A stretch of DNA of 64,000 bases from NCBI RefSeq assembly GCF_003334315.1, contig NZ_QOWR01000020.1; one strand, 5' to 3'. Positions within the stretch are counted from its first letter, which is position 1. Each line of letters starts with the position of its first letter. The position numbers and the translations under genes were made by a program. Below are positions 44,940 to 54,487 of this stretch, piece after piece. This stretch comes from Escherichia coli (GTDB lineage Bacteria; Pseudomonadota; Gammaproteobacteria; Enterobacterales; Enterobacteriaceae). The notes under the pieces were generated by a model. It was not told the DNA's origin, did no database searches, and saw only the letters and a program-made list of their open reading frames with translations.

Positions 44940-46043
44940 TTATTCCCACTCTTGCAGGAAACGCTGACCGTACTGGTCGGCTACCAGCAGAGCGGCGTAA
45001 ACCTGATCTGGCGTCGCGCCGCCAGGCATGTTGTGAATGGTTTCACCTTCTGCACATGCCGCTTCTGCCACAATTCGCATTTTCGCCGGGACATCTTCTT
45101 TAATATCCAGTTGAGCGAGAGTTATTGGCAAACCTACCGCATGGCTAAGGGCAGCTACGGTTTCGATTTCCTCCACCGGCGCATTTTCCAGAACCAGCTG
45201 CGTCAGCGTACCGAATGCCACTTTTTCACCGTGATAATAGTGATGCGCGTCCGGGATAGCGGTCAGGCCGTTATGCACTGCGTGCGCCGCAGCCAGACCA
45301 CCACTTTCAAAACCAACACCGCTCAAATAGGTGTTCGCTTCAATCACGCGCTCCAGCGCCGGAGTCACTACATGCTGTTCGGCAGCAAGCATCGCTTTTT
45401 CGCCTTCTTCCAGCAGGGTGTTGTAGCACAGTTCAGCCAGTGCCAGCGCAGCCTGGGTGCACTTGCCGCCCGCCATGGTGGTCGCGCCGCTACGAGAGCA
45501 GGCACGCGCTTCAAACCAGGTTGCCAGCGCATCGCCGATACCCGCCGCTAACAGACGTGCAGGTGCGCCAGCGACGATTTTGGTGTCGACAATGACCATA
45601 TTCGGGTTATTTGGCAACAGCAGATAGCGGTCAAACTCACCCTCATCGGTGTAGATAACAGACAATGCGCTGCACGGTGCATCGGTAGAGGCGATAGTCG
45701 GTGCGATCGCTACCGGAACACCCATGAAATGTGCCAGTGCTTTGGCAGTATCGAGGGTTTTTCCGCCACCGATACCGAGAATTGCGCCACACTGCGCAGT
45801 CTCCGCGATGCCACGCAGACGGTCGATCTCATTTTGCGAACATTCACCGCCAAACGGCGCAATTTCTACTACCAGTCCAGCATCTTTAAAGCTTTTCTCG
45901 ACAGTGGATTGAGCAAAACCTAAAACAAATTTGTCACCCACCACTAACCAGCGTTCTGCCAGCGGCTTCAGGTATTCGCCCAGACGATTAATCACATCAG
46001 CGCCCTGGATGTATTTACCCGGTGATTGAATAATGCGGTCCAT
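44940..46043 (-). CDS. gldA: glycerol dehydrogenase
   Basis: 367 aa from [45 protein letters not shown]... Confidence 0.95.
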
Positions 46044-46053
46044 AATTGCTCCT

Positions 46054-46716
46054 TTAGAGATGAGTAGTGCCAAATGCGGCATTCCAGTCGTGTTCGAACT
46101 TCTCTATAGCTGACTCTACCGCAGGGGTGTTGAGCATTTGTTGCGCTACATCTAAGGGCAGGGTGATGGATTCACATCCTGCCAGTAAACAGTCCAGCGC
46201 CTGACGCGGCGTTTTAAAGCTGGCCGCCAGCACCATGCTTTCTGGCGCGTGCATTTCTAACAGCGTTTGCAGCTCCTGAACCGTACGAATGCCGTCCCCG
46301 CCCTGGGCATCTACGCGGTTAACATACGCAGCAACGTATTTTGCCCCTGCCAGTGCGGCTAATAACCCTTGTGCGGCGCTATATACAGCGGTGCCAAGTG
46401 TAGTAATACCCTCTTTTTTCAGCAACTTAATGGCGGCCAGACCTTCGGAAGTCACCGGGATTTTCACCACAATGCCCGGAATGGCGTCGCGCAGGCGCTT
46501 CGCTTCTTCCACCATACCCTGCGCGTCACGACTCATAGTCTGAGCAAACAGAATGCCCTCATCACCAATCGCTTTTTGCAGACGCGGCAGCACTTCCCAG
46601 ATGGACTCCTTGCTGGCAGCGATAATGCTCGGGTTAGTTGTCACCCCGGCAATGGGGAATATGCGTGCCAGACGTTCGACTTCTGCGACGTTAGCGGTGT
46701 CCAGATACAGTTCCAT
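46054..46716 (-). CDS. fsaB: fructose-6-phosphate aldolase 2
   Basis: 220 aa [46 protein letters not shown]... Confidence 0.95.
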
Positions 46717-46727
46717 GATGTTTCCTT

Positions 46728-53300: not shown

Positions 53301-54144
53301 CGTTGTGGAAACGCGCCGCGATGATGTGGCGCGCATTTTCAACATTCAGCGTTATTCACTGAATGACGGCGAGGGCATTCGTACGGTGGTCTTTTTTAAA
53401 GGCTGTCCGCATCTTTGCCCGTGGTGTGCTAATCCGGAGTCGATCTCCGGCAAAATCCAGACGGTACGCAGAGAGGCGAAATGTCTGCACTGTGCGAAAT
53501 GTTTGCGTGATGCGGATGAATGCCCCTCCGGGGCGTTTGAACGGATTGGTCGCGATATCAGCCTTGACGCTCTGGAACGGGAAGTGATGAAAGATGACAT
53601 TTTCTTTCGCACGTCCGGCGGCGGCGTCACGCTTTCTGGCGGCGAAGTGTTAATGCAGGCGGAGTTTGCTACCCGTTTTTTACAGCGACTGCGGCTGTGG
53701 GGTGTGTCATGCGCCATTGAAACTGCCGGAGACGCACCAGCCAGCAAGCTATTACCGCTGGCGAAATTGTGCGATGAAGTGTTGTTCGATTTAAAAATTA
53801 TGGACGCGACTCAGGCGCGGGATGTGGTGAAGATGAACCTGCCACGCGTGCTGGAGAATCTGCGTTTGCTGGTGAGTGAGGGCGTCAACGTGATCCCGCG
53901 TTTACCGCTGATCCCTGGTTTCACGCTCAGCCGGGAGAATATGCAGCAGGCGCTGGATGTACTGATCCCGCTGAATATCAGGCAGATCCATCTGTTACCG
54001 TTTCATCAGTACGGCGAACCGAAATACCGCCTGCTGGGGAAAACATGGTCGATGAAAGAGGTGCCTGCGCCGTCGTCAGCTGATGTGGCAACGATGCGCG
54101 AAATGGCAGAACGGGCCGGACTTCAGGTTACCGTGGGAGGTTAA
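53266..54144 (+). CDS. pflC: glycyl-radical enzyme activase (radical SAM)
   Basis: 292 aa from [59 protein letters not shown]...; CxxxCxxC cluster; start overlaps pflD 3' end by 35 nt. Confidence 0.9.
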   Translation: [292 protein letters not shown]

Positions 54145-54145
54145 A

Positions 54146-54487
54146 ATGGCATACCTGGTGGCAGTAACCGCCTGCGTAAGCGGCGTGGCGCATACTTATA
54201 TGGCGGCGGAACGGCTGGAAAAGTTGTGCCTGTTAGAGAAGTGGGGAGTCAGCATTGAAACTCAGGGCGCGCTGGGAACGGAGAATCGTTTAGCGGATGA
54301 GGATATCCGCCGGGCGGATGTTGCTCTGTTGATTACGGATATCGAGCTTGCCGGTGCCGAGCGATTTGAACATTGCCGCTATGTGCAATGCAGCATCTAC
54401 GCATTCCTGCGTGAGCCGCAGCGGGTAATGAGCGCGGTGCGCAAAGTGCTTTCTGCGCCGCAGCAAACCCATCTTATTCTGGAGTAG
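54146..54487 (+). CDS. frwD: PTS fructose-like EIIB component 2
   Basis: 113 aa from MAYLVAVTACVSGVAHTYMAAERLEKLCLLEKWGVSIETQGALG... Confidence 0.93.
   Translation: MAYLVAVTACVSGVAHTYMAAERLEKLCLLEKWGVSIETQGALGTENRLADEDIRRADVALLITDIELAGAERFEHCRYVQCSIYAFLREPQRVMSAVRKVLSAPQQTHLILE

Follow-up and report, generated by a model that had tools for sequence, protein, structure and literature searches.

A very probable anaerobic 1,5-anhydromannitol route encoded by the pflD locus of Escherichia coli

Which compound is consumed by a locus in which a glycyl radical enzyme (GRE) is embedded among the genes of a sugar transporter? The question is raised by positions 44,940 to 54,487 of a 64,000-nucleotide stretch of Escherichia coli DNA (assembly GCF_003334315.1, contig NZ_QOWR01000020.1; the whole stretch is hereafter called the window), where an operon of frwC, frwB, pflD, pflC and frwD is divergent from ptsA, fsaB and gldA, with the regulatory gene yijO at the far end. 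PflD is the GRE, PflC its activase, and the Frw proteins and PtsA are components of a phosphotransferase system (PTS). The original prediction had deduced an anaerobic catabolic route for a sugar or polyol, which is borne out by the published PflD reaction and by the gene context across phyla, both described below. It had also regarded the physiological substrate of PflD and of the Frw PTS as not established; this is outdated, as the substrate of PflD was published in 2024, and the identical protein has been crystallized (PDB entry 8YJO).

According to a 2025 review (PMC12441222), Ma et al. 2024 found that gut bacteria can break down 1,5-anhydroglucitol and 1,5-anhydromannitol anaerobically, by two pathways that both start with PTS phosphorylation to the 6-phosphate. 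In that review, PflD is described as converting 1,5-anhydromannitol-6-phosphate to 1-deoxyfructose-6-phosphate (PMC12441222, citing Ma et al., JACS 2024, 146:26187, doi 10.1021/jacs.4c07718), its paralogue YbiW is described as converting 1,5-anhydroglucitol-6-phosphate to the same 1-deoxyfructose-6-phosphate, and the reaction of both enzymes is said to be strictly anaerobic and to require the glycyl radical (PMC12441222). As a biochemical assignment of PflD has thus been published, the locus is no longer cryptic.

It is very probable, in our view, that these genes together specify a complete anaerobic pathway for 1,5-anhydro-D-mannitol, which would be the PflD arm of the 'radical-mediated glycolysis' described by Ma et al. 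2024. In such a route, phosphate would be passed from phosphoenolpyruvate (PEP) to PtsA, a fusion of HPr, enzyme I (EI) and EIIA, and from there to the EIIB protein FrwB, possibly also to FrwD, while the permease FrwC would take up the anhydro-sugar, to be released inside the cell as the 6-phosphate. PflC would generate the radical at Gly741 of PflD, and a thiyl radical at Cys419, with Glu421 as the base, would abstract a hydrogen beside the ring ether, with elimination of C1-O5. Abstraction at the hydroxyl-bearing C2, followed by this elimination, would yield a 1-deoxy-2-ketose, i.e. 1-deoxyfructose-6-phosphate. FsaB would then split 1-deoxyfructose-6-phosphate into glyceraldehyde-3-phosphate, destined for glycolysis, and hydroxyacetone, and GldA would reduce the hydroxyacetone with NADH to 1,2-propanediol and thereby aid redox balance; YijO would probably be the local transcriptional regulator. 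Both of these lower steps are reportedly part of the pathways described in 2024, with FsaA as well as FsaB said to catalyze the split and GldA the reduction, and the same work is said to include crystal structures with substrate bound and anaerobic growth of E. coli on both anhydro-sugars.

The protein that carries this reading is PflD. The glycyl radical motif RVAGYSAFF named in the original prediction is indeed present, at residues 738-746 of the translation with Gly741 as the radical glycine, which marks the protein as a GRE, and PflD orthologues carry the Pfam domain PF01228 (Gly_radical) together with the PFL-like domain. These domains, and the name formate C-acetyltransferase that RefSeq and the NCBIfam equivalog NF007437 give to the protein, would favor reading PflD as another pyruvate (or 2-ketobutyrate) formate-lyase, an anaerobic back-up of PflB, but we see practically no chance that this is right. 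PflD shares only 24% identity with PflB, against 39% with YbiW. In the alignment, the catalytic loop reads GCVE in PflD (Cys419, Glu421), GCIE in YbiW, GCVE in the B12-independent glycerol dehydratase of Clostridium butyricum (1R8W) and ACCVS in PflB; Cys419 of PflD is aligned with Cys441 of YbiW, with the cysteine of the glycerol dehydratase GCVE loop and with the second cysteine of the PflB dyad (Cys420 counting Met1), and the adjacent Cys-Cys dyad of true pyruvate formate-lyase is absent from PflD. The model of the PFL2-3 subfamily, TIGR01774, matches PflD over its full length with 1356 bits (cut-off 678.2), whereas the model of true pyruvate formate-lyases, TIGR01255, stays at 121.9 bits where its cut-off is 994.2, in a match confined to the C-terminal 190 residues. 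Among 33 matches in PDB, the nearest solved relatives after PflD itself and a Streptococcus orthologue are glycerol and diol dehydratases, with PflB among the most distant, and the depositors of 8YJO named chain A, whose residues 17-781 are 100% identical to residues 1-765 of PflD, 'Probable dehydratase PflD'. The published activity is moreover C-O cleavage of a sugar phosphate. Loop, model score and published activity in effect refute a back-up pyruvate formate-lyase.

Given the GCVE loop, the model scores and the nearest solved relatives, PflD is, as judged from its sequence, a member of the 1,2-eliminase (dehydratase) clade of GREs and no true pyruvate formate-lyase. To call it a pyruvate formate-lyase paralogue, as the original prediction did, is therefore misleading. 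What PflB and PflA have in common with PflD and PflC is the superfamily, the C-terminal glycyl radical motif and the partnership with a radical S-adenosylmethionine (SAM) activase, but PflD cleaves a C-O bond whereas PflB cleaves a C-C bond with coenzyme A. The names of PflD in databases conflict with the published dehydratase/eliminase function: all source names among the homologues listed, like those of RefSeq and NF007437, are 'formate C-acetyltransferase', and one compost metagenome record names a PflD homologue 4-hydroxyphenylacetate decarboxylase. The structures of YbiW, 8ID7 and 8YJN, are also contained in PDB. As a separate observation, a metagenome protein from ENA (P0001, 908 aa) is 96% identical to PflD over 69% of the query and scores 2020 bits, above full-length PflD orthologues; it may have arisen by duplication or fusion, or be an artefact of the assembly.

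Outside the PflD family, no solved enzyme comes closer than the glycerol dehydratase 1R8W (653.6 bits), which has the same fold as PflD in addition to its GCVE loop. With this enzyme, propanediol dehydratase, CutC and HypD, PflD likely shares the chemistry in which a radical is formed alpha to a hydroxyl and a neighboring leaving group is then eliminated. The leaving group in glycerol dehydratase-type eliminases is a hydroxyl or an amine, whereas in PflD it would be the ring ether oxygen of a sugar phosphate, and the reaction would therefore open the ring without loss of water. By analogy with these enzymes, hydrogen abstraction at C2 followed by C1-O5 elimination is the likely chemistry of PflD, in agreement with the product that was reported. 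YbiW has the same GCxE cysteine loop and the same RVAGYSAFF motif, and its substrate is the C2 epimer of the PflD substrate; if the chemistry of both paralogues is centered on C2, then the two epimeric substrates would for that reason yield the same product, the 1-deoxyfructose-6-phosphate given for both in PMC12441222. The ybiW-ybiY-fsaA locus of E. coli indeed repeats the trio of GRE, activase and Fsa aldolase found at the pflD locus (PflC is 38% identical to YbiY), but it has no PTS, gldA or AraC-type regulator.

The other proteins of the locus fit the same route. Each of the proteins encoded at 44940-54487 scores above the curated cut-off of its own NCBIfam model, with E-values that are effectively zero, so that chance is not at issue for the gene identities. 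PtsA matches TIGR01417 (EI; residues 181-677) and TIGR00848 (EIIA-Fru; residues 690-814), its orthologues carry the Pfam domains PTS-HPr, PEP-utilisers and PTS_EIIA_2, and its phospho-histidines are kept (His16 in GVHARP, His301 in GGTTSH and His750 in AIPH). FrwC is recognized by NF007787 (720 bits) and TIGR01427, FrwB by NF007783 (210 bits) and TIGR00829, and FrwD, 44% identical to FrwB, by NF007747 (224 bits) and TIGR00829, with the phospho-cysteine Cys10 present in both EIIB proteins (TACPSGVAHT in FrwB, TACVSGVAHT in FrwD). The EIIC domain, the EIIB cysteine and the EIIA, HPr and EI histidines place the system in the fructose/mannitol family. The family name would imply fructose as the substrate, but gene context and the literature indicate an anhydrohexitol. 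Since the phospho-residues are intact, the PEP-to-sugar phosphorelay specified by the locus is self-sufficient, and a GRE, an activase, an aldolase and a reductase are encoded alongside it. FsaB scores 348.6 bits with TIGR00875 (cut-off 245.95), has the Schiff-base Lys85 in VVKIP and is 69.5% identical to FsaA; GldA scores 752.6 bits with the equivalog NF047954 (cut-off 700). PflC, adjoining PflD, is a radical-SAM activase (NF007483, 627 bits; TIGR02494, 262 bits against a cut-off of 174) with the CX3CX2C motif CPHLCPWC at residues 47-54. After this motif PflC has a short cysteine-rich insert (Cys73, 76, 79 and 86), shorter than the ferredoxin-like insert of YbiY and without a counterpart in PflA, which might bind a single auxiliary Fe-S cluster.

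A PTS of the fructose family next to an aldolase and a dihydroxyacetone-reducing enzyme also invites another pathway, an anaerobic one for fructose or another ketose, in which Frw would import fructose, FsaB would cleave fructose-6-phosphate to dihydroxyacetone and glyceraldehyde-3-phosphate, GldA would reduce dihydroxyacetone to glycerol and PflD would be a glycerol or diol dehydratase. The membership of FrwC, FrwB and PtsA in the fructose family favors this pathway, as does the position of glycerol dehydratase as the closest previously characterized enzyme. The in vitro cleavage of fructose-6-phosphate by Fsa, the low Km of GldA for dihydroxyacetone and an earlier link of PtsA to anaerobic fructose catabolism (PMC6643234) add to this. 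Nevertheless, we regard the fructose pathway as very improbable. Catabolism of fructose-6-phosphate is not rescued by chromosomal fsaA and fsaB (PMC7767278), none of the NCBIfam dehydratase equivalogs is reached by PflD at cut-off, and the published substrate is a 6-phosphorylated anhydrohexitol (PMC12441222). In a Firmicute operon described below, the GRE gene lies between the PTS and the Fsa genes, which fits an enzyme that acts on the product of the PTS and not downstream of GldA. Earlier work on the aldolase and dehydrogenase bears on hydroxyacetone as well: the Fsa enzymes accept it as a donor, are barely expressed, and their physiological role was still 'enigmatic' in 2020 (PMC7767278), while hydroxyacetone induces gldA, which, like fsaB, behaves as an anaerobic gene and is co-transcribed with ptsA (PMC6643234).

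To see how far the gene set holds together, we compared it across genomes. The best 120 matches listed in a homologue search with E. coli PflD are all enterobacterial, with at least 89% identity, and in a library clustered at 50% the PflD family forms one cluster, whose nearest outgroups, on a 3.8-kb contig or in a truncated gene, are uninformative. More distant orthologues were therefore sought with the sequence of PDB entry 8ID0, rebuilt from the alignment, which is the PflD orthologue of Streptococcus dysgalactiae (61% identity with PflD of E. coli). Further orthologues are present in Enterococcus, Lactobacillaceae, Sporolactobacillus, Clostridium, Bacillus and Exiguobacterium, with 61-64% identity in Streptococcus, Bacillus and Clostridium. 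In S. dysgalactiae a single co-directional operon reads EIIA-EIIB-EIIC-GRE-activase-FSA-Fe-ADH (Fsa-type aldolase and iron-type alcohol dehydrogenase); the EIIC immediately upstream of the GRE is FrwC-like (50% identity), the aldolase is 38% identical to FsaB, and the dehydrogenase that ends the operon is GldA-like (50%). In Bacillus sp. HMF5848 the order is DeoR, EIIC, epimerase, EIIA, EIIB, GRE, activase, FSA, HPr, EI, with the functions of PtsA unfused. In Enterococcus a DeoR-GRE-activase set has a PRD regulator and EIIA/B/C genes a few genes upstream. A metagenome contig of Clostridium sp. cel8 (L013, 8063-18243) has DeoR-GRE-activase-FSA-oxidoreductase, with a GRE 64% identical to PflD, adjoining a second activase/DeoR/GRE set. 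The GRE of this second set is closer to YbiW (53% identity) than to PflD (37%) and adjoins a mannose-type PTS. Both anhydro-sugar branches appear to be present in one locus.

Within the Enterobacterales, synteny of the locus extends from katG to ppc in Salmonella, Leclercia and Enterobacter, and the locus of E. coli K-12 (PflD is b3951 there) is the same locus without functional differences. In Edwardsiella tarda ATCC 23685 (L005, 5033-14389) we find fsaB-ptsA, frwCB-pflDC-frwD and the AraC-type regulator intact, with PflD at about 91% identity, but gldA is not part of the module, and the neighborhood is a different one, with the uvrC/pgsA side and ato-like genes. This suggests that the module was acquired horizontally as a unit, and the presence of the AraC gene and absence of gldA imply that yijO travels with the module and that gldA is dispensable. 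Of the contexts examined, the five enteric modules all contain frwD, whereas the four of Firmicutes lack it. As the same functional set recurs in Gammaproteobacteria, Bacilli and Clostridia with differing gene orders and regulators, the comparison is strong evidence for a single pathway that has a fructose-family PTS as its entry point, although it is not direct proof for FrwC of E. coli. The single functional unit that had been proposed from gene spacing is thereby borne out by the gene set that recurs in Streptococcus, Bacillus and Clostridium.

The entry step is also where another explanation has to be weighed. PflD may act on 1,5-anhydromannitol-6-phosphate with the general (mannose/fructose) PTS as the main supplier, and Frw may be regulatory or serve a related anhydro- or deoxy-sugar. 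No PTS genes lie in the YbiW locus, and a housekeeping PTS can therefore admit an anhydro-sugar; the YbiW-type GRE of Clostridium adjoins a mannose-type PTS, and FrwD is an additional EIIB for which there is no obvious need. We nevertheless judge this division of labor rather unlikely, for fructose-type EIIA, EIIB and EIIC genes directly adjoin the GRE genes in S. dysgalactiae and Bacillus and share a locus with them in Enterococcus and the enterics, the residues for phospho-transfer are all intact, and in two lineages the module is accompanied by a dedicated EI/HPr.

Several points nevertheless weigh against a complete and dedicated anhydromannitol route. That Frw and PtsA, and not another PTS, would serve 1,5-anhydromannitol in E. 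coli is something we infer, and the FsaB and GldA steps, like the growth phenotypes, are drawn from what was reportedly described in 2024 and from gene context. The gldA gene is missing from the Edwardsiella module and Fsa does not adjoin the GRE in the Enterococcus context, so that linkage of these two steps to the remainder is not obligatory. In a study of Salmonella that names frwC a fructose transporter, the gene was induced in the gut of mice on an amino-acid diet, yet its mutant lost no fitness in the gut in one mouse model (PMC11974825).

The layout of the locus, given in Table 1, was established from the open reading frame (ORF) list, megablast against complete E. coli genomes, the RefSeq annotation of an identical match and translation. 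The gene identities and the divergent operons that had been predicted are confirmed by the ORFs, the RefSeq annotation and the NCBIfam matches. The predicted overlap of 35 nt between pflD and pflC is exact (53266-53300), whereas the gap between pflC and frwD, predicted as 2 nt, is 1 nt (TAA-A-ATG; pflC ends at 54144 and the ATG is at 54146).

Table 1. Features of the pflD locus, with positions in the window; each gene listed is an intact ORF, and functions given for control-region elements are putative.
Feature	Position	Strand	Description
gldA	44940-46043	-	NAD-dependent glycerol / L-1,2-propanediol dehydrogenase
fsaB	46054-46716	-	class I fructose-6-phosphate aldolase 2
ptsA	46728-49229	-	fused HPr-EI-EIIA(Fru) multiphosphoryl transfer protein
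ptsA/frwC divergent intergenic region	49230-49537		308 nt; candidate regulator sites
conserved block	49287-49330		direct repeat GACAAAT-N13-GACAAAT at 49294-49320
conserved block	49339-49354		CRP-like TGCGA-N6-TCACA; half-sites largely kept, spacer variable
conserved block	49398-49465		includes inverted repeat TTTTGTA-N7-TACAAAA
conserved block	49474-49488		fourth block
frwC	49538-50617	+	fructose-family PTS EIIC permease
frwB	50632-50952	+	fructose-family PTS EIIB
pflD	51003-53300	+	glycyl radical enzyme, Cys419/Glu421/Gly741
pflC	53266-54144	+	radical-SAM activase
frwD	54146-54487	+	second PTS EIIB paralogue
yijO	54474-55325	-	AraC-family regulator, convergent with frwD

The mechanically derived ORFs of three genes start upstream of the annotation: gldA (44940-46082; 380 against 367 aa), pflC (53197-54144; 315 against 292) and frwD (54083-54487; 134 against 113). 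The annotated starts coincide exactly with the ends of the NCBIfam profiles, and we therefore prefer the shorter forms. The 9.5-kb region was matched in all 5426 complete E. coli genomes, with coverage of at least 80% in 5394 of them (megablast). Relative to K-12 MG1655, 78 of 10,386 nt differ. The protein sequences of GldA, FrwC, FrwB, PflD, PflC and FrwD are those of K-12, the one nucleotide difference in pflD being synonymous, while FsaB differs by 2 residues, PtsA by 3 and YijO by 3. The nucleotide differences are clustered in fsaB (16), ptsA (44) and yijO (17), with 0-1 differences each in gldA, frwC, frwB, pflD, pflC, frwD and the intergenic region, a pattern that looks like a recombination mosaic. 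A search of positions 44000-56000 with Rfam returned zero RNA families.

How the two divergent operons might be controlled can be approached through YijO and the region between ptsA and frwC. Residues ~160-275 of YijO match the helix-turn-helix (HTH) of the AraC, RhaS and PocR models, all below the curated cut-offs, and its orthologues carry PF12833 (HTH_18) and PF00165 (HTH_AraC), the double HTH of the AraC/XylS family; YijO is a likely regulator of the module. The coding sequences of frwD and yijO overlap convergently by 14 nt (54474-54487), and the pair is contained in a list of convergent transcriptional overlaps ('excludon') from an RNA-seq survey of E. coli (PMC12288877). When the divergent control region was aligned across five enterobacterial genera, it displayed the four conserved blocks of Table 1, whose functional readings, drawn as they are from the letters of the DNA, we offer as leads. 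At least one match to GACAAAT-N13-GACAAAT, with one mismatch allowed, occurred in 4 of 100 shuffles. The number of CRP-like motifs in the window is not significant (35 of 100 shuffles), and that candidate is put forward for its conservation across species alone. A terminator-like hairpin at 49345-49360 (GCGTCTCACAAGACGC then TGTTTTG) overlaps the CRP-like site, and its stem is not kept in the other four species. A promoter scan of the control region returned zero consensus sigma-70 promoters, which would fit activator-dependent, normally silent operons and may serve as a further lead.

One could imagine that YijO activates both operons through the GACAAAT repeat and that FrwD, which would then take no part in transport, is a phosphorylation sensor that couples sugar flux to the activity of YijO or to the expression of yijO. 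We hold this combination to be quite improbable; if it were true, it would add an unusual regulatory layer to the enterobacterial module.

The annotation of this family lags behind its biochemistry. RefSeq and NF007437 keep 'formate C-acetyltransferase' for PflD, and a 2025 study of Salmonella keeps frwC as a fructose transporter. The assignment of PflD and YbiW solves several old puzzles of E. coli at once, namely the roles of these two GREs, the existence of two dormant Fsa aldolases that prefer hydroxyacetone, and the presence of gldA in a PTS operon.

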